Below, piece by piece: positions 9,752-59,384 of a stretch of DNA of 60,467 bases. The notes below the pieces were generated by a model, which was not told the origin of the DNA, ran no database searches, and saw nothing but the letters and a program-made list of their open reading frames with translations. The translations under genes and the position numbers were made by a program. Position 1 is the first letter of the stretch. Each line of letters starts with the position of its first letter. Source of the stretch: Patescibacteria group bacterium (GTDB taxonomy: Bacteria > Patescibacteriota > Minisyncoccia > 2-02-FULL-40-12 > IGHO2-01-FULL-4-A); NCBI GenBank assembly GCA_038061865.1, contig JBBTYI010000009.1:1-60467 (forward strand), written 5' to 3'.

Positions 9752-9838
9752 AATTTCTAATATCTAATTACTAATTTCTAAATAATAACTAATGTCTAAT
9801 TGGGGCTTGGACATTGAAATTTGTTTAGAAATTAAAAA

Positions 9839-10318
9839 TTAGGAATTAGTAATTTTAATTGTTCTCTCATTTTGCGAAATATGGTCCATATGCACCCAAA
9901 TACATTTTTTCGGCAAAATCGGCTTCACTCTCTCCGCCCATTCAATTAGCACAATATTTCCCGGCTCGGCGATGATTTTCTTAATTCCCAGCGGCAGCAA
10001 ATCTTTGTAATTTTTCAGGCGATAGCAGTCAATGTGGACCAATTGGTTATAGGTTTTAGGTGATAGGTGATAGGCGCGCATCAATACAAATGTGGGGCTG
10101 GTCAATTTTTGCTTTACTCCCAATGCCTTGGCGAAGGCTTTGGCAAAAGTGGTCTTGCCGGCGCCCAACTCACCCTCTAGAGCTACCACCGTAGCCCTAC
10201 CCGGGGCGCTTGCCCACCGCAGTTTTGGCGAAGGCGGGAAGCGGAGGGTGATCAGCTTGCGCGCAAGTTCGGCAGCAATTTTTTGTGTTTGGGTAACGCT
10301 CTCTGACCGGTATTTCAT
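9839..10318 (-). CDS. tsaE: tRNA t6A biosynthesis ATPase TsaE (YjeE)
   Basis: 159 aa; P-loop GELGAGKTTFAKAF; size and layout typical of TsaE. Confidence 0.8.
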   Translation of the reverse strand: MKYRSESVTQTQKIAAELARKLITLRFPPSPKLRWASAPGRATVVALEGELGAGKTTFAKAFAKALGVKQKLTSPTFVLMRAYHLSPKTYNQLVHIDCYRLKNYKDLLPLGIKKIIAEPGNIVLIEWAERVKPILPKKCIWVHMDHISQNERTIKITNS

Positions 10319-16842: not shown

Positions 16843-18408
16843 TCAAACTAAGCCGAAAAATGATTCACTTTCGGTTTTAATTTTGTAACCCTTGGCTTCA
16901 AAAATATTATTCTCACTGATGATTTTTTTACCGTCAATGTCCGCCAAAGTGCGGGCGATTTTTAAAATCTTGTGATAGCCGCGGCCGGAAATCGCGTTCT
17001 CAACTACAAATTTTTTTAAAACTTTTTCCGCTTCATCAGTCAACTGGCAGAACTTTTTAATTTCCTTCGGCCCCATTTCACTGTTGGTTTGGATTTTTGT
17101 GCCCCTAAATCTTTCCTGCTGCACTTGTCTGATGTTCTGAACCGTCAATCGTATTTCGTTACTGGTTTGCCCTTCTATTTTCTGACTGCTGATTTTTTCA
17201 TAGGTCTCGCGCGGGACGGAAATTTGAATGTCAATGCGGTCCAGCAATGGACCGGAAATTTTTCTCTGATATTTAAAAACTGATTGGGGGGTGCAAGTGC
17301 AGGCCTTAATTTCATCTCCGTAATTTCCGCAAGGACAAGGATTCATTGCCGCTACCAGCATAAAGCGGGAGGGGAATTTTACCGTGCTGGCGGCGCGAGC
17401 AACAGTGACTTCGCCGCTTTCCATCGGCTGGCGCAGGGCCTCAATCACATTTCTGGCAAATTCCGGGAATTCATCCAGAAACAAAACGCCTCGGTGAGCC
17501 AGTGAAATTTCGCCGGGTTTCGGCCAGGTACCGCCGCCAATCACCGCCACCGCCGAAGTAGTATGATGCGGACTGCGAAAAGGCCGGCCGGAAATTATTG
17601 ACCGGCCATTCACTAATCCGGAAATGCTGTAAATCTTGGTCACTTCCAGCGCTTCTTCGTAGGACATCTTGGGCAAAATGCCGGCCATCGCTTGGGCCAG
17701 CAGTGTTTTACCCGAACCGGGCGGGCCGTACATCAGCAGGTTATGGCCGCCGCAAGCGGCGATCAGTAAGGCCCTCTTGGCCACATTTTGACCTTTAATA
17801 TCGGTCATATCCAGCATTTCACGGGTCCCATAATCCTCGGCTTGTCCAATTATCTCATAGTCAATCGGCTCAACTGGGATAATATCCGTTTTGCCTTTTA
17901 AGTATTCGCAAAGCTCCTTTAGGTTTTTAACCCCGATGACCTTCAGACCTCTGACCACAGCCGCTTCATTGGCATTGTCTTTGGGAACGATGATCTCTTT
18001 TAAGCCCCGGTTTTTAGCCATGAAAGCCGCCGGCAAAACGCCATTTACCCGCCGCAACGAGCCGTCTAAAGAAAGTTCGCCCAGAAAAAGCTTATCATCA
18101 GTTAGAAACTGAATTTGTTTAGTTGTCAAGAGATAGCCCAGAGCAATCGGCAAATCATAAGCCGGCCCTTCTTTTTTGACATCGGCTGGGGCCAGGTTAA
18201 CAATGACTCTGCGGTTTTTTTGTTTGGGCGCGATAAAACCGCTGTTTTTAATCGCGGCGGCGATGCGATCCTTGGACTCTTGAACGGCCTTATCGGCCAA
18301 GCCAACAATGTTGAAGAAATGCAAACCCGGCGTGGAGTCAACTTCCACTTCTACGGCAAAGGCGTCAAGACCAATAACCGCTCCGGAGAAAACTCGGACC
18401 GATGGCAT
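16843..18408 (-). CDS. comM: ComM / YifB-family Mg-chelatase-like AAA+ ATPase
   Basis: 521 aa; Lon-like N-domain, AAA+ core (GPPGSGKT), C-terminal ChlI region. Confidence 0.85.
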   Translation of the reverse strand: MPSVRVFSGAVIGLDAFAVEVEVDSTPGLHFFNIVGLADKAVQESKDRIAAAIKNSGFIAPKQKNRRVIVNLAPADVKKEGPAYDLPIALGYLLTTKQIQFLTDDKLFLGELSLDGSLRRVNGVLPAAFMAKNRGLKEIIVPKDNANEAAVVRGLKVIGVKNLKELCEYLKGKTDIIPVEPIDYEIIGQAEDYGTREMLDMTDIKGQNVAKRALLIAACGGHNLLMYGPPGSGKTLLAQAMAGILPKMSYEEALEVTKIYSISGLVNGRSIISGRPFRSPHHTTSAVAVIGGGTWPKPGEISLAHRGVLFLDEFPEFARNVIEALRQPMESGEVTVARAASTVKFPSRFMLVAAMNPCPCGNYGDEIKACTCTPQSVFKYQRKISGPLLDRIDIQISVPRETYEKISSQKIEGQTSNEIRLTVQNIRQVQQERFRGTKIQTNSEMGPKEIKKFCQLTDEAEKVLKKFVVENAISGRGYHKILKIARTLADIDGKKIISENNIFEAKGYKIKTESESFFGLV

Positions 18409-18439
18409 TAAAAATTACTAGTAATCAGTTACTAATTAT

Positions 18440-18515
18440 TATTCGCATGCGCTATGAATTATTCGCGCACACTATTCGTCAAGTGTATGCAACTACTATT
18501 CGTAAGCGTAGTAAC
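18440..18515. repeat. Copy of the ATTCGCATGCGCTATTCGTAAGCGTATGTAAC-family repeat, downstream of the DksA-like gene
   Basis: Sequence identity with the elements at 18904-19060 and, in reverse orientation, at 56399-56550. Confidence 0.6.
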
Positions 18516-18522
18516 TATTATA

Positions 18523-18897
18523 TCAGAGTGGGCGGGCGGTTTTGGCGCAGTCAAAACATAAGCGGACCGCCGACATCGCCTGGAGCCGTTTTCCATCAAT
18601 GTTAGAACGGCATTTTTCACAAACGCCGTAACTGCCGCTCTCCAGTTTGGCTAAGGTATCTTTTATTTCTTTCAGGCGCATTTCCAGACTTTGTTCGACC
18701 GCCCGTTCATTTTCATAGTCGGTAACACTGCGGGCTTTTTCGTCCAGCGTATCGGAGTTTTCCGTTTTGGGGAAAACTGATTGATAATCATCCCTGACGA
18801 CCGGATTTTTCACGGCAAAACGGCCGAGTTCGGCTTCAATTATCTGTATCTCTTGGAGTAAATCTTCTCTTAATTTTTGCAACTCTTGGGGCGTCAT
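18523..18897 (-). CDS. DksA/TraR-family C4 zinc-finger protein
   Basis: 124 aa; coiled-coil N-terminus; C-terminal CEKC...CFDC (CxxC-17-CxxC). Confidence 0.7.
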   Translation of the reverse strand: MTPQELQKLREDLLQEIQIIEAELGRFAVKNPVVRDDYQSVFPKTENSDTLDEKARSVTDYENERAVEQSLEMRLKEIKDTLAKLESGSYGVCEKCRSNIDGKRLQAMSAVRLCFDCAKTARPL

Positions 18898-18903
18898 CAG
18901 TGG

Positions 18904-19060
18904 ATTCGCATGCGCTATTCGTAAACGTATGTAACCATTTTAGAAGTTAAGGCTAGCACGAATATTAAAAATAATCAATGAATAATTCGCGTGCGCTACA
19001 AACGATTCGCATGCGCTATTCGTAAGCGTATGTAACCACTATTTGTAAGCGTAGGTAACT
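18904..19060. repeat. Two near-identical 34-bp direct repeats (18904-18937 and 19005-19038) plus degenerate units, upstream of the DksA-like gene
   Basis: attcgcatgcgctattcgta[a/g][a/c]gtatgtaacca occurs twice about 67 bp apart; partial copies at 18985-19004 and 19040-19059. Confidence 0.65.
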
Positions 19061-19126
19061 ATTTCTGGGTAATAAAAAGGACATCAAACAAGTAACCCAC
19101 AAGAAGATGTGTGGACAATTAGCGGA

Positions 19127-20335
19127 TTATTTGCCGGGGACTGCGTTGGGGTCGATGCTTTTTATTTTATCGATCACCGCGTAAATGTGGGTTTTTGAAC
19201 TGGCAAAAACCAAGTAACTTTCGCCGTTGGGCGCATCCACTACGGCATAATCAACTGTATCCAACGGATCGGGAAAGTTGCGGTAGCGGATAGCCGCGCC
19301 TTGATAAGTGTTATCTAGAAAACCAGTGGAGATGGCCCGCGCTACATTCAGGCGAAACAGGTTTTTCAGATCATTTGAAATGGTAGTTTCCCAGTTTCTC
19401 AACGCGGCGCCCGCCGCGGCCGAGTCATTGACTTTAACGATCCAGCCGTAGCTAAAAGTGCTGTCATTCTTACGCATCAGGGAGGCATAGAATTGGCCAT
19501 CATTTAAAGCGGCAATCAAAGTAGCTGGCGCGTTCGGAAAGCTAGCGGAAGCAAACTGGCTAAAAGGAAAATGTTCGCCGCTAACTGGATCGCCTATCTT
19601 ATAAAGCGCTGGGTCACCTAGGGTCAAACTTTGGGTATCACTTAGGCTAGTTAAGCTAGCGAAGAGATCGGGAGTAACATTGGCAATCGGCCCATACACT
19701 TGGGTAAAGACCGTTTCCAGCGGCGGTATGACCACCGGAGTCGGAGTAACCGTAATGCTCGGGGTCGGTGATTCAACGACGGCCGGCGAGGGCTCATAGA
19801 AAACCAAAAACCAAAGCGAAAAACCGCCAATTATCAAAACGGTCAGAATAGCCAGCAATCCGGAACGGCCGAAAACCGGTTTTTTAGGAGTTGGCGGTAC
19901 GGCGATTTGCGCGCTGATGCCGGGCGATGGCCGACTGGTCGGAATCCCGGCAGGAGGAGGAGGGGCAAAAACAGGCCGAGGCGGGGAGACGGGTGATGCA
20001 GGTGTAATAGGCGGTTTTGGAACCACTGAAATAGGTCTTTCCGGAGTAATACCAATGGGAGGTTTCCCTTTGCTCAAAGCGGTTAAATCATCCTGCATTG
20101 TGCGAATTGACGATTTAATATTTGGGCTGGGTGCCGGCGGCGGCATCGTCCCCGCCATAGTTTTTGGCGCTGGGGGTGAAAAAATCACAGGGCCGGTCGG
20201 AGACGGCTGGGGCGGTTTTAACGGAGAAGGGGGAGGCGCCGGCGGGCGGGCGGGGGATGGCGGAATATTTCCGGTTGGTAAATTCGGCGGCGGAATTTTG
20301 AGGTCGAAACCGGAAGATTGGTTTTGATCGGCCAT
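19127..20335 (-). CDS. Proline-rich membrane-anchored hypothetical protein
   Basis: The start was trimmed to MADQNQ. An approximately 150-aa Pro-rich N-terminal region is followed by one TM helix (LLAILTVLIIGGFSLWFLVF) and an extracytoplasmic domain. Confidence 0.5.
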   Translation of the reverse strand: MADQNQSSGFDLKIPPPNLPTGNIPPSPARPPAPPPSPLKPPQPSPTGPVIFSPPAPKTMAGTMPPPAPSPNIKSSIRTMQDDLTALSKGKPPIGITPERPISVVPKPPITPASPVSPPRPVFAPPPPAGIPTSRPSPGISAQIAVPPTPKKPVFGRSGLLAILTVLIIGGFSLWFLVFYEPSPAVVESPTPSITVTPTPVVIPPLETVFTQVYGPIANVTPDLFASLTSLSDTQSLTLGDPALYKIGDPVSGEHFPFSQFASASFPNAPATLIAALNDGQFYASLMRKNDSTFSYGWIVKVNDSAAAGAALRNWETTISNDLKNLFRLNVARAISTGFLDNTYQGAAIRYRNFPDPLDTVDYAVVDAPNGESYLVFASSKTHIYAVIDKIKSIDPNAVPGK

Positions 20336-23198: not shown

Positions 23199-23250
23199 TT
23201 GTTCACTTTACCACATTACTTAACAAACTTAAAGGTGGAGAGGATTTGAT
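23199..23250 (-). promoter_or_regulatory. Conserved promoter/operator-like block upstream of hicB copy 1 (shared with the 24230-24290 block)
   Basis: About 40 nt are nearly identical to the sequence upstream of hicB copy 2 (aatcctctccacctttaagttt...taatgtgg). Putative -35 TTAAGT and -10 TAAAGT/TAGATT with a 16-nt spacer. Confidence 0.4.
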
Positions 23251-24229: not shown

Positions 24230-24290
24230 GTTGATAACAAATCTACCACATTATTCCAAAAACTTAAAGGTGGAGAGGATTTTAATAAAT
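24230..24290 (-). promoter_or_regulatory. Second copy of the conserved hicB upstream block; overlaps the NYN gene 3' end
   Basis: A 22-nt identical core, aaacttaaaggtggagaggatt, plus a flanking accacatta block. Confidence 0.4.
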
Positions 24291-25102: not shown

Positions 25103-25239
25103 TGCACCTATAATACCAGAAACTAATTTAGATGACAATTCCCTTATTATGTCGTAAAATAAGACTTGTTGCGGCACACCTGTCGCAAAATGCATTGAGA
25201 TTGTACAACGTTAAGCACATCGCACAATCTCAATATCAA

Positions 25240-26178
25240 ATGCCTGACCTCAAGCAACTCAAAACCCAATTTCTGGAATATCTGGAAATTGAGAAAAACC
25301 GCTCCGCCAAGACGGCGGGGAATTACGACCATTACTTGACTAGGTTCTTGGAGTTCGCCTCCGCCCACGGACGGATCAATCGAGCTGAAGATATCACCGA
25401 AGAATTAATCCGCAAGTTCCGGCTGCAGCTCAACCGCCGGCGTGACCAATTCGGTCGGCCGCTTAAACGCGTCACCCAGAATTATCACGTTATCGCTTTG
25501 CGTTCATTCCTGAAATATTTAGCCAAGCGCGATATCCAAACGGTCTCGGCGGAAAAACTGGAGTTGGGCAAGCAGGAGGAACGGGAAGTTACCTTTCTGG
25601 AACCGCATGAGCTTGAGAGATTTTTGAAGTCGCCGTCAGGCACTGACCTAGCCAGCCGGCGCGACCGGGCAATACTTGAGACACTTTTTTCCACCGGTTT
25701 GCGGGTATCGGAACTGTGCTCGCTCAACCGGGATGAGATAGACCTCAAGCGGGGAGAGTTTTCGGTCAGAGGCAAGGGCAGCAAAATCCGGGTGGTTTTT
25801 TTATCGGACACCGCCAGCGCCGCCTTGACCAATTACTTGGATAAGCGTACTGACGCCGACCCGGCGCTGTTTATCCGCGTGCCCAAAAACGAAAAGTTTG
25901 AAAAATTTGGAGAATTGCGGCTGACGCCGCGCAGTGTCCAGCGCATCATTAAAAAATACGCCGCCGTCGCCGGCATCATCGGAAAAAAAATATCACCTCA
26001 CAGTTTACGCCATAGTTTCGCCACTGACCTTTTACGCAACGGCGCCGATATTCGTTCGGTTCAAGCCCTGCTCGGCCACGCCTCTGTCACCACCACCCAG
26101 ATCTACACCCATGTCACCGACAAACAACTGCGTGAAACCCACCAAAAATACCACGGTAAACAAAAAGGGGTGTCTTAA
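25240..26178 (+). CDS. Tyrosine recombinase, XerC/XerD family
   Basis: The start was trimmed to MPDLKQLK. SAM-like N-domain; catalytic R...HxxR...Y (LRHSFATDLL...GHASVTTTQIYTHV). Confidence 0.8.
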   Translation: MPDLKQLKTQFLEYLEIEKNRSAKTAGNYDHYLTRFLEFASAHGRINRAEDITEELIRKFRLQLNRRRDQFGRPLKRVTQNYHVIALRSFLKYLAKRDIQTVSAEKLELGKQEEREVTFLEPHELERFLKSPSGTDLASRRDRAILETLFSTGLRVSELCSLNRDEIDLKRGEFSVRGKGSKIRVVFLSDTASAALTNYLDKRTDADPALFIRVPKNEKFEKFGELRLTPRSVQRIIKKYAAVAGIIGKKISPHSLRHSFATDLLRNGADIRSVQALLGHASVTTTQIYTHVTDKQLRETHQKYHGKQKGVS

Positions 26179-27688: not shown

Positions 27689-27732
27689 CCCCTATCAAAA
27701 ACCCCCGCCTAGGCGGGGGTTTTTGATAGGGG
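27689..27732. terminator. 21-bp perfect hairpin (cccctatcaaaaacccccgcc-ta-ggcgggggtttttgatagggg) at the tmRNA 3' end
   Basis: Perfect reverse complement over 21 bp with a 2-nt loop; abuts the tmRNA acceptor end. Confidence 0.6.
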
Positions 27733-28080
27733 TGGACTTGGGGGAAATCGAATCCCCGTCTGGAGGTTCATTTACACAAGCGCTACAAGTTTAGCCCGTC
27801 TTGTTTTAAGTAACCGCGTAAAAGACGGGCGAAATAGCGATTACTTGCTTTGAGGGTTGCGACCGGCGATCGGCAAAGCAACCAGATGCCGGAAGTTCCC
27901 GCTGATGACGTTGGTGACTGACTAGCGGGGTCGTCAGGCCAACGGCTACCTAAATGATGTTAGGCGGCAAACGCGAAATTTTGGTTTGCGTTTAGATTTT
28001 TGATTGTTGATTAAAGCGGTGACAATCATCCGCTACTTGCGCTGGTTATAAACGTACCGCCATCAAAGCCGGTCAAGCCC
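27731..28080 (-). ncRNA. ssrA: tmRNA (SsrA), about 350 nt, tag peptide (A)ANQNFAFAA
   Basis: Minus-strand read: 5' GGGCUUGACCGGCUUUGAUGGCGG resembles the consensus 5' GGGGCUGAUUCUGGAUUCGACGGG. The 3' end has a T-arm GGGGA-UUCGAUU-UCCCC and an acceptor strand CAAGUCC pairing with the 5' GGGCUUG. In frame is GCA AAC CAA AAU UUC GCG UUU GCC GCC UAA. An upstream TTGGAC-17-CATAGT promoter is present, and smpB is 1.8 kb away. Confidence 0.85.
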
Positions 28081-38300: not shown

Positions 38301-38864
38301 GAGAGCGTGCATTTGCATGATTGGCCGCTGACGCAACTACCAACTACTAATCATCAACTACTAACAACTAATATGGAGGAGGTCAGAAAGTTTGTGGCGG
38401 CGGGATTGGGAGAAAGAAAAGCGAAAAATATAAAAGTTCGGCAGCCGCTGGCCGGGGCTACGCTCAAACGGGCGGAAAAATTTGCCGGCGGGCTGGAGGA
38501 ATTGATTAAAGATGAGCTGAATATCAAGACAATCAATTATAATGCCGATGCTGAAGCCGTAATTGCCCTGGATGAGCGTATCACCGAGGATTTAATCCGG
38601 GAGGGTTGGGCGCGAGAAGCGATGCGCCAAATTCAAGATATGCGCAAAGAAGTTAAGTATAAGTTAAATGAAAAGGTATTCGCCGCCTGGGAAACGGACA
38701 ATGCTGAACTGGCCACTGCCATGAAAAATTTCAGTTCTACCATTACCACCGACACTTTGCTCAAATCCTTCATTCGCGGGCATCAACTAAACCTAAAATA
38801 CGATGTCGAAAAAGATTTCAACCTAGCTGAAGGAGTAAAGATTTGGTTAGGGGTGAGGAAATAA
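35376..38864 (+). CDS. ileS: Isoleucyl-tRNA synthetase carrying an inserted histidine-phosphatase (PGAM-like) domain
   Basis: 1162 aa; HIGH PHIGHLLTR, KMSKS RKMSKSKGN, CP1 editing domain. Between WQCANKHH and DLHRPYVD lie about 200 extra residues. Confidence 0.9.
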   Translation: MTLDDFKKNEEKILKFWGDSKIFEKSLAQRKGAKPFVFYEGPPTANGLPHIGHLLTRIFKDLYGRYKTMRGYYVLRRAGWDTHGLPVEIEVEKQLGLKTKKDIEEFGIARFNKKARESAQKYKAEWERMTERMGFWLDLDNPYITYRPDYIESVWAIIKKIWDKKLLYQGHKVIPFCTRCGTPLSSHEVAQGYEDITETAVIVKLKIKEPLEAISHNLTPNTYFLAWTTTPWTLPGNVALAVGESIKYLIVSIKGGNEKYVLAEDRAEKVLNAEYEILDTVSGKDLVGLEYEPLFDVAALKSKNSYKVYPADFVTTEEGTGIVHTAVMYGEEDYELGKKVGLPTRHTVDEQGRFTADVAAFSGQYVKDAEPGIVKYLRDKNRLFKEELHLHTYPFCWRCHTPLLYYATDSWFIKMSARRQQLLKNNRQINWKPKHMKEGRFGEFIKETKDWALSRKRYWGTPLPIWQCANKHHLVVSALADLERHRFRPANTYYLIRHGTSTKNVVPGKDIISSKLEKDAYELTSQGRAEVKETARQLKRANGADLIISSPFLRTKQTAQIIADYLNQPVKIDKRLKEIDLGSANEGRLYDEAIPPVPDFETKLDDGESRHDVRRRVWSLIRELEEKYSGKKIILVSHGDPIWLLDGLSRNLDEPAMLLHRAQDYLKKGGVRKVTFANYPRNEDGEVDLHRPYVDEIALKCPECNEAMRRVPDLIDVWFDSGAMPLAQWHYPFENKKLVDSGQQYPADFIVEAIDQTRGWFYTMLAIATASGRKPPYKNVMVLGHTLDEKGRKMSKSKGNVIMAHDILEQFGADVVRWYLFTLSDPADGKPISPKDIAQKYRGFFGTLQNTLRFFELYASSAKPSGSPEPQSELDQWLFARLAQLTATVTENLDAYAPTIAARAIEEFVVDDLSNWWVRRSRKRFQHPVSNEELVYVASILRYALLELAKIIALFIPFTAEWLHSELHRGQTAGTESVHLHDWPLTQLPTTNHQLLTTNMEEVRKFVAAGLGERKAKNIKVRQPLAGATLKRAEKFAGGLEELIKDELNIKTINYNADAEAVIALDERITEDLIREGWAREAMRQIQDMRKEVKYKLNEKVFAAWETDNAELATAMKNFSSTITTDTLLKSFIRGHQLNLKYDVEKDFNLAEGVKIWLGVRK
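36807..37409 (+). other. In-frame histidine-phosphatase domain insertion within ileS (aa about 478-678)
   Basis: Motifs LIRHGTS, LTSQGRAEV...ARQL, DLIISSPFLRTKQTA, EIDLGSANEG and ILVSHGD match the PGAM-branch histidine phosphatase superfamily. Confidence 0.7.
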
Positions 38865-45903: not shown

Positions 45904-45904
45904 A

Positions 45905-45985
45905 CTAGCTTATTAGCTTTTTAGCTGCTTAGCTGCCTAGGGAATCCCTAAGAAGCTAAGAAGCTAGGCAGCTAATTAGCTGCCC
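45905..45985. repeat. AGCT-rich low-complexity region containing an imperfect inverted repeat (cttagctgcctaggg / ccctaag...ctaggcagctaa)
   Basis: 12-bp perfect inverted repeat TTAGCTGCCTAG/CTAGGCAGCTAA plus tandem TAGCT units. Confidence 0.5.
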
Positions 45986-48579: not shown

Positions 48580-48588
48580 TCCCAACAA

Positions 48589-48613
48589 TCCGAATTTATC
48601 CGAATACTCCGAA
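48589..48613. repeat. Left inverted repeat flanking the GxxExxY gene (ccgaatttatccgaat + ccgaat)
   Basis: Reverse complement of attcggataaattcg at 48997-49011. Confidence 0.55.
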
Positions 48614-49014
48614 TGGAGAAAATAATTCATAAGGAGATGTCTTATAAGTTAGGTGGGTTGTTTTTCAAAACTCATAATGATTTGGGTAGATTTAGAAAAG
48701 AGTACCAATATTGCAAGCACTTTGAGGGTCTCTTGAAAAATAGCAACATCAGCTACGTAAGAGAATATAAGATTAATTCTCCCGACAAAGCACTAAATAA
48801 GGTAGATTTCTTCATTGAAAACGCCATACTCGTGGACTTTAAGGCCAAGCCATTTATCACCAGGGAAGATTATTATCAGATGAGAAGGTATCTAGAACTG
48901 GTGGGACTAGACTTAGGTTTGATAGTTAATTTTAGACAAAAATATCTTAAGCCGAAACGGGTTTTAAACTCCAAATCCACCTCATCTATTCGCAGCATTC
49001 GGATAAATTCGTAG
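48613..49014 (+). CDS. GxxExxY-family protein
   Basis: 133 aa; EKIIHKEMSYKLGG...ENAILVDFKA...GLIVNF matches the GxxExxY family layout. Confidence 0.75.
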   Translation: MEKIIHKEMSYKLGGLFFKTHNDLGRFRKEYQYCKHFEGLLKNSNISYVREYKINSPDKALNKVDFFIENAILVDFKAKPFITREDYYQMRRYLELVGLDLGLIVNFRQKYLKPKRVLNSKSTSSIRSIRINS

Positions 49015-49024
49015 TTTCGGATTA
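48997..49024. repeat. Right inverted repeat flanking the GxxExxY gene (attcggataaattcg...tttcggatta)
   Basis: 16/16 match to the reverse complement of the left copy; overlaps the gene stop. Confidence 0.55.
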
Positions 49025-55029: not shown

Positions 55030-55153
55030 AATACCCCGCCCCCTTTCACTGCCCGAACTCGGATGAGGCGCGGTTTTAATGGTTTTATAAAAATAGTACC
55101 GCTTATTGCTTCAGCCTCAATCCTTATTAGGCAGTGAAAGGGGGCGGGGTATT
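55030..55153. repeat. 124-bp element with perfect 24-bp terminal inverted repeats (AATACCCCGCCCCCTTTCACTGCC)
   Basis: 55030-55053 is the exact reverse complement of 55130-55153; the 76-nt interior is AT-rich. Confidence 0.65.
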
Positions 55154-56398: not shown

Positions 56399-56550
56399 TT
56401 ATTCGTTGTTACATACGCTTACAAATAGCGCACACGAATATACATAAGCGTACGTAACTGGGTATTGCCAAAATCAGGTTTCTTAAGCATAATCCAAAAA
56501 GCGTTGGGTTGTTTTGTTGTTGCATACACTTAACGAATAGTGCATACGAA
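56399..56550. repeat. Reverse-orientation copies of the 18440/18904 repeat family, upstream of tsaC
   Basis: gttacatacgcttacaaatagcgca is the reverse complement of tgcgctatttgtaagcgtatgtaac. The second unit at 56518-56550 is the reverse complement of ctattcgtcaagtgtatgcaac at 18467-18488. Confidence 0.6.
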
Positions 56551-56558
56551 TTACTTAG

Positions 56559-57251
56559 ATGAAGATTATTTCTGTCAATCTCAAAGGAGACCTTACCGAA
56601 GCGCTGCTTGCCGCTTTGGACGTCCTTAAAAAAGGCGGGGTGGTGGCTTATCCGACCGACACTATTTACGGTTTGGGCGCTAACGCTTGCGATTACAAAG
56701 CGGTGGAGCAGATTTTCAAAATCAAAAACCGGCCCTTCTCCAAGCCCCTGCCGATCATTGCCCGGGATCTGAATTGGGTCAGAGAACTGGCCTATCTGCC
56801 GCCCAAGCTGGAAAAACTATTGGCGGAAATCTGGCCTGGTTCGATCACGGCAATTTTGACCAGGAAAGATATCGTGCCGCCGATCGTCACCGCCGGGAGC
56901 AGTAAAGTTGGCGTCCGCATTCCGGATTTTGAGTTCACCGAAAAACTGCTGGCTAAATTCGGCTACCCGCTGACCGCTACTTCCGCCAATCTTTCCGGCG
57001 AAGAGGGCACCGGCAATATCGCCGCCGTCATCAATTTCTTCAAAGACCAGCTGTGGCAGCCGGATTTGATCATTGACGCCGGCAATTTGCCTAAGTCCCT
57101 GCCTTCAACTATTCTTGACCTTTCCACTCTCAAGCCAAAGATTCTGCGGGTCGGCCCGACCAAACCGGATTTTTTGATGAAACTATTAGGCGCCACTTAT
57201 GCTGAAAAAGCTAATCCAAAAAGAAGCGCTCCGCCAGCGGAGGGTTATTAA
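56559..57251 (+). CDS. tsaC: L-threonylcarbamoyladenylate synthase TsaC (YrdC-only)
   Basis: 230 aa; VAYPTDTIYGLGANA, KPLPIIAR. Confidence 0.9.
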   Translation: MKIISVNLKGDLTEALLAALDVLKKGGVVAYPTDTIYGLGANACDYKAVEQIFKIKNRPFSKPLPIIARDLNWVRELAYLPPKLEKLLAEIWPGSITAILTRKDIVPPIVTAGSSKVGVRIPDFEFTEKLLAKFGYPLTATSANLSGEEGTGNIAAVINFFKDQLWQPDLIIDAGNLPKSLPSTILDLSTLKPKILRVGPTKPDFLMKLLGATYAEKANPKRSAPPAEGY

Positions 57252-58374
57252 TTTCATCCCTTCCGAAAACTATGTCTCCAAAAACGTTTTGGCGGCTTTG
57301 GGTTCGCCCCTGACCAACAAATATGCCGAGGGGCAAGCGCACCGGCGCTACTACTTCGGCAATCAAATCATTGACGAGATTGAAGACGAAGTAAAAAAAT
57401 TGGTTTACAAATGCTTTAAGGTCACACCGGCTAAATATGGTGTCAATGTCCAGCCGTATTCAGGCAGTATTGCTAATCTGGCGGCCTATCTGGGCGCATT
57501 AGTGGATGGCGACCCCGAGAAGCTTCGCAACGGGGCAAGCCGGATATTAGCAATGTCGCTTGCTCACGGCGGCCATCTGACTCACGGCCATAGTGTCAGC
57601 TGGACTGGTAAACTTTTTAATTTTAGACACTATGGCGTTGGTCGGGACGGCTGGCTGGATTATGACGCAATTGCCAAACTGGCTAAACAGTTCAAGCCCA
57701 AACTAATCGTCTGCGGTGCGACGGCTTACCCACGGAAGATTGATTTTAAAAAATTCCGCCGGATTGCCGACTCGGTCGGTGCGCTGCTCATGGCCGATAT
57801 TTCCCATATTGCCGGTTTGGTGGTTGGGGGAGCATACCCCTCACCTTTTCCTTACGCCGATATTGTTACTACCACCACTCACAAAACTCTGCGCGGCCCC
57901 CGCGGGGCAATAATTATTTCTAAAAAGGAGCTGGCTGATAAAATCGATAAGACCATTTTCCCGGGCCTGCAAGGCGGGCCGCAGATGCACACCATAGCCG
58001 CGATTGGGGTTTGTCTGGAAGAAGCATTGCACCCAAGCTTCAAGAAATATGTCAAACAAGTCGTAGTCAATGCCAAAGCATTGGCAGGAGAATTAAGGCA
58101 TTTGGGGGTTAAGGTAATATCGGGCGGGACGGACAATCATCTGCTTTTGGTTGATGTCACCCCGCTGGGCATTAGCGGCAAAACTGCCGGCGAGCGTCTA
58201 GAAAAGCACGGTATCATTGTCAATAAAAACGCGATTCCTTACGATATCCGCCAGCCCTGGGATCCGTCGGGCATCCGCCTGGGCACCCCGGCCGTAACCA
58301 CGCGGGGGATGAGGGAAAAGGATATGATAAAAATCGCGAGAAGAATACGCGCGATTTTAATGACTGATTCTTAA
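57199..58374 (+). CDS. glyA: Serine hydroxymethyltransferase
   Basis: 391 aa; SENYVS, PLP-lysine motif TTTTHKTLRGPRG; the listed start overlaps tsaC by 53 nt. Confidence 0.9.
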   Translation: MLKKLIQKEALRQRRVINFIPSENYVSKNVLAALGSPLTNKYAEGQAHRRYYFGNQIIDEIEDEVKKLVYKCFKVTPAKYGVNVQPYSGSIANLAAYLGALVDGDPEKLRNGASRILAMSLAHGGHLTHGHSVSWTGKLFNFRHYGVGRDGWLDYDAIAKLAKQFKPKLIVCGATAYPRKIDFKKFRRIADSVGALLMADISHIAGLVVGGAYPSPFPYADIVTTTTHKTLRGPRGAIIISKKELADKIDKTIFPGLQGGPQMHTIAAIGVCLEEALHPSFKKYVKQVVVNAKALAGELRHLGVKVISGGTDNHLLLVDVTPLGISGKTAGERLEKHGIIVNKNAIPYDIRQPWDPSGIRLGTPAVTTRGMREKDMIKIARRIRAILMTDS

Positions 58375-58387
58375 TTACTAATTTCTA

Positions 58388-59170
58388 ATGATTGTCGATG
58401 GCAGGGAAATTGCCGAAGAAATATTAAATCGGTTGGCCGAGGAGGTAAAAAAACTGAAACCGCTCACTTTAGCGGCGGTTTTAGCGGGTAATAATCCGAA
58501 CAGTAAAAAGTTTATAGGGCTCAAGCGGAAAGCAGCCGAGAAAATCGGCATTGGGTTTGTTATCCACGAATTTCCGGAAAAATTATCTTCCGAAGAACTA
58601 AAAAAAGAAATTGCTAAATTGAGCAAATTAAATGACGGCATAATTGTTGAATTGCCTTTACCGCCGCACATTAATACCCTATATGTCCTGAACGCCATTC
58701 CCGAGGAAAAAGATGCGGATGTTTTATCGCAAAAAGCGCAGGACGCTTTTTTCGCGAATCAGTCAAAAATCCTGCCGCCCTCGGTGGAAGCAGTCAAAAC
58801 AATATTCGCCAAATATGACATTAATCCGATTGGTAAAAACTGCGCTGTTTTTGGTCATGGTCTATTGGTCGGCAAACCAATTAGCCACTGGCTTACCGCT
58901 CAAGGCGCCAATGTTTCAATTATCACCGAACACACCCTAAATCCTACGCCCCACACCCTTTCCGCGGATATAATCATCTCCGGCGTCGGTATACCCAACC
59001 TAATCACCGCCGACCTGGTCAAAGCGGGAGCGATAGTAATCGATTTTGGCCCCGATGTGGATTTTGAACCGGTCAGCGCTAAGGCCTCCCTCATCACCCC
59101 GCCCACCGGCGGCGTCGGCCCGATTGTTATTGCCGGTGTGTTGAAGAATTTGGTGGGGTTGGGGGAATAA
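58388..59170 (+). CDS. folD: Bifunctional methylene-THF dehydrogenase/cyclohydrolase FolD
   Basis: 260 aa; Rossmann GHGLLVGKP; YxxxK active-site region. Confidence 0.9.
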   Translation: MIVDGREIAEEILNRLAEEVKKLKPLTLAAVLAGNNPNSKKFIGLKRKAAEKIGIGFVIHEFPEKLSSEELKKEIAKLSKLNDGIIVELPLPPHINTLYVLNAIPEEKDADVLSQKAQDAFFANQSKILPPSVEAVKTIFAKYDINPIGKNCAVFGHGLLVGKPISHWLTAQGANVSIITEHTLNPTPHTLSADIIISGVGIPNLITADLVKAGAIVIDFGPDVDFEPVSAKASLITPPTGGVGPIVIAGVLKNLVGLGE

Positions 59171-59273: not shown

Positions 59274-59384
59274 GTGCAGTATTCTTGAATTAGTCCGAAC
59301 GCATTTCGCCGCCGCAGGCGGCGAGGAAGTCCCCCCGCGAAAATTCGGAAAGGCGGCGGAGCCGCACCGCTGACAATTTCAAGT
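59274..59384. repeat. GC-rich hairpin element; an inverted copy is present at positions 1-92 (truncated by the window edge)
   Basis: 59301-59365 matches the reverse complement of 1-65 except in one hairpin, where cgccg-tctg-cggcg is replaced by cgccgcc-gca-ggcggcg (compensatory change). The element ends cttgaatt...aatttcaag pair with each other. Confidence 0.6.

Follow-up and report, generated by a model that had tools for sequence, protein, structure and literature searches.

A family of short interspersed palindromic elements between Patescibacteria genes, probably REP- or MITE-like rather than regulator-binding arrays

The 60,467-nucleotide (nt) stretch of Patescibacteria contig JBBTYI010000009.1 analysed here, hereafter the window, carries a short repeat whose copies are all confined to three spacers, those upstream of comM, of a gene coding for a DksA/TraR-like protein (the dksA-like gene) and of tsaC (Table 1). 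The common unit is a 33-nt module, ATTCGCATGCGCTATTYGT(N)AAGCGTATGTAAC, present in exactly five full copies together with partial units. The two near-identical direct copies that a preliminary description of this DNA had noted are real: they read ATTCGCATGCGCTATTCGTAA(A/G)CGTATGTAAC at 18904-18935 and 19005-19036 of the plus strand, are 97% identical over 35 nt, with 101 nt from the start of one to that of the other. A third copy of this 32-mer, with three mismatches, is found at 56408-56439 of the minus strand, against an expectation of 0.00 chance matches in the window at up to three mismatches, and two diverged full copies with one additional loop base each occupy 18461-18493 (plus) and 56519-56551 (minus). 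The degenerate units described downstream of the dksA-like gene likewise hold up and include a full module. The units described as reversed on the tsaC side are present too, but are inverted in window coordinates only; in all five copies the strand reading ATTCG..GTAAC (the F strand) is antisense to the mRNA of the downstream gene, and the polarity relative to the genes is thus identical. Taken with the comparisons described below, the copies form a discrete, hairpin-forming, extragenic and mosaic family that occurs at non-orthologous sites in several Patescibacteria genomes, varies in presence among close relatives and includes palindromes without an open reading frame (ORF) that are collinear with the ends of a gene-bearing cassette.

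The units contain a perfect palindrome, CGCATGCG, as had been described. The 13-nt sub-repeat ATTCGNNNGCGNT fares less evenly: five of its six exact matches fall inside the repeat loci, and matches with one mismatch show no enrichment window-wide (20 observed versus 21.9 expected). A shorter core is more telling, in that clusters of at least three ATTCG/CGAAT pentamers occur four times in the window where 0.4 are expected, and are limited to the repeat loci and to both flanks of a GxxExxY family gene at 48.6-49.0 kb. Unit spacings are irregular (12, 13, 20, 23 and 101 nt), and each locus has two to three units that adjoin directly or are separated by 67 nt; the arrangement is not that of clustered regularly interspaced short palindromic repeats (CRISPR), in agreement with the earlier assessment.

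We compared the window with related loci from other genomes, which were inspected in stretches of at most 10 kb and carry labels such as L004 or L038. In 36 distinct copies, of which the related ones are not independent events, the module forms a 9-bp hairpin (GCATGCGCT / loop ATTYGT(N)A / AGCGTATGT) with standard pairs in 96.9% of the cells; the pairing is lost when the partner columns are shifted. The third pair from the loop covaries (GC in 21 copies, AU in 12, GU in two, unpaired in one), two stem pairs are almost invariably G.U, and the changes in the two outer pairs are mostly transitions that preserve wobble pairing on the F strand. The loop is conserved and 7 or 8 nt long, and this variable arm spacing together with the covariation favours a folded single strand over a dimeric protein bound to duplex DNA. 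A covariance model built from 35 module copies returned 41 matches at E <=1e-8 in the 197 kb made up of the window and the related loci, and none from there to E=1. All 41 lie in spacers or 5' untranslated regions (UTRs). The five modules of the window score between E 2e-9 and 2e-13, with nothing weaker up to E=1.

Table 1. The 33-nt modules, the elements that they build and the associated genes and promoter-like sites in the window. Modules are given as covariance-model matches; z compares folding with that of shuffled sequences.
Feature	Coordinates	Strand	Remarks
Full module	18458-18496	+	E 2e-9
Full module	18901-18938	+	E 7e-12
Full module	19002-19039	+	
Full module	56405-56442	-	
Full module	56516-56554	-	E 3e-11
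Partial units	18441-18453, 18496-18516, 18985-18997, 19039-19061		
Partial unit, inverted	56440-56458		
Type II composite	18441-18516	+	dksA-comM spacer, inside comM 5' UTR; ATTCGCATGCGCT (18441-18453), linker ATGAATT, diverged module with 8-nt loop (18461-18493), CTATTCGTAAGCGTAGTAAC (18496-18516)
Solo module	18901-18938	+	6 nt upstream of the dksA-like start codon (18897, minus strand)
Type I composite, about 78 nt	18985-19061	+	unit ATTCGCGTGCGCTACAAACG, module 19005-19036, third unit CTATTTGTAAGCGTAGGTAAC
Module with inverted partial unit (56440-56458, plus)	56403-56458	-	palindrome of 14-16 bp; z -3.7 and -2.9
Solo module, 8-nt loop	56516-56554	-	7 nt upstream of the tsaC start codon (56559)
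comM/yifB	16843-18408	-	
dksA-like gene	18523-18897	-	
tsaC	56559-57251	+	preceded by an anti-sigma gene
Extended -10 promoter-like box TGATATAAT	18517-18525	-	overlaps the dksA-like stop codon; adjoins the type II composite, outside the repeat
Sigma-70-like promoter TTGCCA-17-CATAAT	56465-56493	+	10/12 matches; between the two tsaC-upstream elements, outside the repeat
GxxExxY (PDDEXK_3) cassette, 444 nt	48580-49023	+	TIGR04256, PF13366; ORF 48613-49014

The module occurs in several settings: solo, in tandem (three modules with a 41-nt period in L025), in composites of types I and II, and at the tip of longer palindromes. In the type I composite the outer units form an 11-bp stem that encloses the module hairpin (-25.3 kcal/mol, z -2.4 on the plus strand, +0.2 on the mRNA-sense strand); near-identical 78-nt composites recur in L014, in L027 and twice in L029 (rplP-rpmC and rpsJ-rplC). 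The outer units of the type II composite pair around the module as well (z -1.8 on the plus strand, -0.3 on the mRNA strand), and L029 has a composite of the same type between rplB and rpsS. The distal tsaC element follows closely on the anti-sigma stop codon and precedes the tsaC promoter. Palindromes of 95-110 nt with the module at the tip are seen in six further loci (L004, L010, L016, L018, L021 and L026); their arms are arrays of ATTCG, ATTTG or ATTAG units, and these arm-flanked forms fold as hairpins of the same length, that of L018 at -52 kcal/mol.

DNA of the window recurs in contigs of Hainich groundwater metagenome assemblies, and the repeat itself extends beyond it. A degenerate pattern search of about 185,000 species genomes found six sites in five genomes, all of them Patescibacteria, with the labels Paceibacteria, Yanofskybacteria and 'Saccharibacteria' among them; a second pattern matched 27 contigs from metagenomes and none of viral origin. 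All these further copies lie in spacers or 5' UTRs. Once duplicates were removed, 26 distinct loci remained, and in these the elements adjoin unrelated housekeeping genes. Within ribosomal protein operons they occupy the rpsJ-rplC, rplB-rpsS and rplP-rpmC spacers (L029; also L004 and L007), the rplV-rpsC and rpsC-rplP spacers (L010 and L018) and positions before rplM and after rplQ (L030). Other copies lie between secE and nusG (L016 and L026), before atpF, mraZ, hsp20, typA and rny, between a macB-type ATPase gene and that of its permease, and before tRNAs. The same S10 operon has different spacers occupied in different genomes; rplV-rpsC and rpsC-rplP measure 19 and 22 nt when empty (L029) versus 83 and 79 nt when filled (L018). 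Both orientations relative to transcription are used, in a ratio of roughly two-thirds to one-third. The element often takes up the entire spacer, with the upstream stop codon overlapping TAGTTAC and the next start codon following CGAAT after 0-16 nt. At the gathering threshold Rfam recognises only the transfer-messenger RNA (tmRNA) and tRNAs in the window and the 26 loci. Collections of phages, plasmids and viral contigs gave no match to the repeat, and in the searchable literature, including that on repetitive extragenic palindromic (REP) elements in Patescibacteria, GxxExxY and PDDEXK_3, we found no description of these elements. In the rpsC-rplP spacer of L004 (reverse strand) a unit of ~86 nt that includes the last rpsC codons is duplicated in tandem; ATCAATTAATCTGCCGACATTGCC-like segments recur elsewhere in that locus and constitute a different repeat family in the same operon.

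Close relatives provide pairs of filled and empty sites at all three window loci. In L038, whose DksA-like protein is 90% identical, the flanks and the candidate promoters are kept, the type I composite upstream of the dksA-like gene is lacking between conserved flanks, the type II composite is lacking as well (the dksA-comM spacer is 22 nt versus 114 nt in the window), and of the dksA modules just the proximal one is retained, in degenerate form. L037, with a DksA-like protein 97% identical to that of the window, lacks the proximal module and has its ATG directly after TCTAAA. The window counterpart of this ATG opens a 7-codon ORF that ends at the TAG of the module, and the window gene begins at a new ATG 21 nt past that TAG; the proximal copy occupies the place of L037 codons 2-4. 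At tsaC, L049 has a TsaC of the same 90%-identity cluster and almost identical aligned flanks; it is without about 40 nt spanning the proximal module and conserves the distal element (here 56403-56458). Copy number varies too, one orthologous site having a single copy in L008 versus three tandem copies in L025. Individual copies can, hence, be dispensed with and have been gained or lost recently. The dksA loci of L039-L041, with 55-63% identity, carry no copies.

Three other features were seen in these comparison loci. L037, a low-coverage contig, has rplP immediately next to the dksA-like gene, with a type I composite at the junction (800-960); either the assembly is chimeric at the repeat or the repeat has mediated a genuine rearrangement. 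L038 (790-940) and also L039 and L041 have a conserved, structured-looking segment of ~150 nt, beginning at GGGGCTATAAT, upstream of the dksA-like gene; the window has none, and the segment may be a small RNA gene. Finally, the spacer after the dksA-like gene in L039 (2635-2715), and equally in L040, contains a perfect parS-like palindrome, TGTTTCACGTGAAACA.

We consider it likely, with a probability of about 0.7, that the repeats are copies and fragments of lineage-specific short interspersed palindromic elements, found in one group of ultra-small bacteria from groundwater and akin to REP elements and bacterial interspersed mosaic elements (BIMEs) or to miniature inverted-repeat transposable elements (MITEs), and not regulator-binding arrays. 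A small dispersed REP-like repeat had been among the candidates of the preliminary description, and it is the one borne out by further copies in other genomes, always in spacers, beside unrelated neighbours, in both orientations and with variable presence in close relatives. The reading that it had drawn from the units themselves, reiterated protein-binding sites of the iteron or operator kind, did not survive: copies are missing in relatives with near-identical flanks, none occur at distant dksA orthologs and the promoters lie outside the repeats, all of which argues against iterons, operators and a regulon of the DksA-like protein or of the extracytoplasmic function (ECF) sigma factor encoded beside the anti-sigma gene.

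The promoter evidence is as follows. The box TGATATAAT, assigned promoter function from its sequence, would place the type II composite in the comM 5' UTR because it overlaps the dksA-like stop codon; its counterpart in L038 is TGGTATAAT, kept although the element is absent there. The sigma-70-like promoter of tsaC is conserved in L049. More generally, the elements do not contain the canonical promoter boxes, which are retained where elements are missing. An operator or iteron-like array would imply that a regulator, be it global, the ECF sigma factor or one linked to the DksA/TraR-like protein, co-regulates the dksA-like gene, comM, tsaC and other housekeeping genes. In keeping with this, the sequence of loop and flanks is conserved beyond what structure demands, elements stand on both sides of the promoter at tsaC and dksA, and many copies immediately precede start codons of growth-related genes. 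We nevertheless think it improbable, since copies are missing in close relatives with intact promoters, positions within one operon differ by genome, both orientations are used and some copies sit inside operons, as between rpsJ and rplC. The arms covary at a spacing that varies by 1 bp, and a loop of 7 or 8 nt separating the palindrome arms would suit a dimeric binder of duplex DNA poorly. The links suggested to the two neighboring regulators fail in turn: the upstream region of the ECF sigma gene itself has no copy, the orthologous dksA loci at 55-63% identity carry none, and DksA/TraR proteins bind RNA polymerase, not DNA. There is also no rep or dnaA gene near the repeats in the window.

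Several specific candidates of this kind were rejected. A transcription-factor regulon is at odds with positions that range from upstream of a -35 box through the 5' UTR to intercistronic sites, and with the variable presence in L037, L038 and L049. Replication-origin iterons do not fit the irregular spacing, the three loci in 60 kb with many more elsewhere, or neighbours such as comM, the dksA-like gene and tsaC. The known motifs of LexA, CIRCE, NrdR, CtsR, cre, the Spo0A box, parS and the DnaA box do not match the module, and the literature yielded no usable LexA motif for Patescibacteria.

It is very improbable that the module is itself a promoter for the adjacent genes, whether sigma-70-like (TTCGCA-N17-TATGTA, on one strand) or of ECF type (TGTAAC..CGT). 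Weak hexamer resemblances exist and some spacers, such as those of L008 and L019, are little more than a module. On the other hand, a consensus scan and several hexamer registers tried by eye gave no promoter-like site in any module of the window, and no hexamer with the A at position 2 and the T at position 6 of a -10 box stands at a usable distance. The genome's own promoters are canonical (TGGTATAAT, TATAAT or TAGAAT 7-10 nt before ATG), and the distance from module to ATG runs from 0 to more than 100 nt. The ECF-type form in particular (TGTAAC-N16/17-CGT) was rejected, its downstream partner not being conserved and the upstream region of the ECF sigma gene being without a copy.

The folding evidence bears on another alternative, namely a functional RNA: a processing site for RNase III or RNase Y, an mRNA stabiliser, a translational element at starts that lack a Shine-Dalgarno (SD) sequence, or a cis-antisense RNA. 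The covarying stem with its G.U pairs, the location between cistrons and in 5' UTRs, and the long nested hairpins, which out-fold shuffled sequences on the ATTCG strand, would all suit such a role, as would the likeness of the inverted repeats around GxxExxY genes to rRNA intervening sequences, which are excised by RNase III. However, the strand that folds well in the window is the F strand (z -2.4, -1.8, -2.8 and -3.7), whereas the transcribed strand carries A.C mismatches and, in four of the five elements, folds no better than shuffled sequences (z 0.24, -0.29, 0.14 and 0.04); the distal tsaC palindrome alone folds on both strands (mRNA-sense z -2.9). Across 37 elements with the module masked, the lower stems have no consistent strand preference (17 versus 17, Wilcoxon p 0.9). 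Orientation to transcription is mixed, close relatives dispense with individual copies, and positions 18380-19140 have no Rfam match even at E up to 1. We therefore regard a functional RNA as unlikely, if a little less so than an operator array. We also rejected the idea that the internal ATG of CGCATGCGAAT opens a small ORF or couples translation, since no more than about half of the copies have it.

Translation initiation may nonetheless explain how copies are oriented. Where a verified start codon lies within 16 nt of a module, the mRNA carries the weakly folding strand, which fits selection against stable hairpins at such sites. SD-like motifs precede just six of the 34 window genes, and filtering of orientation at start codons fits an organism that rarely uses them. 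In many genes, for example tsaE, the ECF sigma gene, htrA and leuS, a TATAAT- or TAGAAT-like box stands 7-10 nt before the ATG, which suggests widespread leaderless or very short-leader mRNAs.

The GxxExxY gene, the remaining site of clustered pentamers, offers a possible source of the palindromes. Its cassette in the window has a left array of three CGAAT units (48582-48617) and a right array of three ATTCG units (48985-49020); the arms are 36 nt long and 81% complementary, and the right array encodes the C-terminal tail of the protein (IRSIRINS). It separates metG from tatD, two genes that share a 4-nt overlap in the relatives L050 and L052; the best TatD homolog is 65% identical, so that only distant empty sites are available for this comparison. 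All eight distinct cassettes found, including distant Patescibacteria ones at atpD-atpC and elsewhere, have such polar flanks: the left flanks together contain 15 CGAAT and two ATTCG, and the right flanks 15 ATTCG and three CGAAT, with ~0.6 expected per count. The variable N- and C-terminal tails of GxxExxY homologs (DANTAN, NSDxxSD) look consistent with arrays of this kind at the protein level, and a D...(D/E)xK motif is conserved in 30 homologs; no solved structure was found among the relatives. In L006 a module follows the GxxExxY stop codon and precedes the right arm, and the ORF-less 110-nt palindrome of L018 is collinear with this cassette (32/38 positions in the left arm, 65/72 in the module plus right arm), the 381 nt that contain the ORF being absent and the genomic sites being different. 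Judged from the alignment, the relation of L018 to L006 is that of a MITE to its parent element.

These observations raise the tentative possibility that GxxExxY genes represent the autonomous form of an undescribed small mobile cassette bounded by CGAAT on the left and ATTCG on the right. The encoded PD-(D/E)XK nuclease would recognise the arrays, the 33-nt hairpin or both as folded single-stranded DNA and mobilise itself along with the ORF-less palindromes, and the inverted arms would let the transcript be processed around the insert, as in rRNA intervening sequences. For the interspersed elements as a whole, we envisage that they spread as DNA, through insertion or duplication, and that the hairpin is probably recognised in one of the two strands; thereafter the elements would ride passively in host transcripts, and copies beside start codons would survive mainly in the orientation that gives a weakly folding mRNA strand. 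The GxxExxY protein as the mobilising enzyme is the speculative part of this scheme.

A number of points weigh against interspersed mobile elements and against the part assigned to GxxExxY. The three filled/empty pairs show neither a consistent target-site duplication nor a clean insertion junction, and their junctions also bear substitutions; insertion is thus indistinguishable from deletion there. A strict pattern had one site only in the retrieved part of a 339-kb contig. No transposase or REP-associated tyrosine transposase (RAYT) was seen among the ORFs of the 60-kb window or the called genes of the loci, and the Pfam labels of the latter include no Y1 transposase family. The window cassette is without the 33-nt module, L006 is the sole cassette of the eight that carries one, and the covariance model finds none in the distant cassettes, the module being present in a narrower lineage; the GxxExxY gene could, hence, be a passenger that lands in hairpin loops and not the mobiliser. 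The covariation depends mainly on one pair, related copies do not count as independent, and the invariant G.U pairs with the conserved loop and flanks amount to a sequence-specific constraint that could reflect a host protein or an undetected function. Likewise, the recurrent position 0-7 nt before start codons could point to co-option in translation or regulation.

Other repeats and features were noted along the window. Positions 1-89 and 59278-59366, the contig start and the region after folD, form a GC-rich 89-nt inverted repeat, 90% complementary, that does not correspond to a tRNA and may represent a further repeat family at which the contig breaks off. A perfect 24-nt inverted repeat, AATACCCCGCCCCCTTTCACTGCC, surrounds 76 nt between a TraG/VirD4-like gene and the ECF sigma gene (55030-55053 and 55130-55153). 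The spacer between the genes for an M16 peptidase and an AI-2E permease (45904-45985) is a palindromic array of TAGCT/AGCTA, and the same spacer in L021 has a module-bearing element; it seems that unit-array hairpins from more than one sequence family accumulate in the spacers of this clade. AT-rich arrays of TAATTWCTAA or CTAACTACTAA occur at 9752-9854, 18412-18442, 58358-58388, 1705-1742 and 38334-38371, directly upstream of polA, comM and folD among others, and one of them consists of 48-nt inverted arms (9752-9799 and 9807-9854). A 39-nt direct repeat, 90% identical (23209-23247 and 24244-24282), stands directly upstream of two small paired-gene modules that by eye resemble HicA/HicB toxin-antitoxin pairs and is probably their shared promoter or operator. 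The tmRNA gene lies at 27730-28080, with the tag ANQNFAFAA. Near 28 kb the gene orientation changes from minus to plus and the cumulative GC skew has its minimum, adjoining a tyrosine recombinase gene (25132-26178); the region at about 25-28 kb may be origin-proximal. An explanation of the repeats by replication strand was set aside, this skew minimum being confounded with the gene-strand switch.

The family has some practical bearing. Its arrays resemble regulatory sites and should not be annotated as operators or iterons. The ~78-nt composites are repeated within genomes and can break or mis-join contigs of Patescibacteria metagenome-assembled genomes, as the rplP-dksA join of L037 illustrates. 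Insertion within a few bases of start codons in hosts largely without SD sequences would produce strain-level variation in expression. Further, GxxExxY proteins are a large family of unknown function, and the polar ATTCG arrays of their cassettes, together with the collinearity described above, offer a concrete starting point for testing what they do.

Among known systems, iterons and operator arrays share with these elements short units reiterated within about 80 nt, and are set apart from them by the irregular spacing, the many unrelated loci, the lack of a replication gene, the lack of conservation at orthologous sites and the covarying stems. REP/BIME elements and the REP inverted doublets (REPINs) of Proteobacteria are closer. 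Their module, of about 35 nt, is likewise an imperfect palindrome in which mismatches are conserved, and they are extragenic, lie between the genes of operons in both orientations, form single or mosaic clusters of a few unit types and are lineage-specific. REPs and REPINs are mobilised by RAYTs, which are TnpA-like enzymes of the IS200/IS605 kind; they reach hundreds of copies per genome, and the RAYT gene, which encodes a Y1 HUH transposase, is usually flanked by REPs. In contrast, the present elements have no sequence similarity to REPs, were seen with no RAYT and have an apparently much lower density (5 modules in 60 kb); they place the module at the tip of longer palindromes, unlike REP inverted doublets, and their sole ORF-bearing relative carries a PD-(D/E)XK gene of the GxxExxY family. 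With the MITEs whose transcripts fold as hairpins, such as the Neisseria Correia elements, the enterobacterial ERIC/IRU and the pneumococcal BOX/RUP, they share an ORF-less length of 80-110 nt, inverted-repeat arms, collinearity with a longer ORF-bearing element, intercistronic insertion and variable presence between strains, and, as in mycobacterial MIRUs, their ends often adjoin or run into the stop and start codons on either side. They differ from MITEs in that no target-site duplication was found, the partner ORF is not that of a known transposase, and polar arrays of a 5-nt core take the place of simple terminal inverted repeats. A last parallel is with the intervening sequences of 23S rRNA. 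There the host RNA is not, as here, an mRNA operon, and the ORF-less versions of the present elements are dispersed; yet in both a small ORF, here GxxExxY, lies within inverted repeats able to form a long stem and sits as an insert in transcribed sequence, here between essential genes such as metG and tatD, atpD and atpC, or nusG and rplK.

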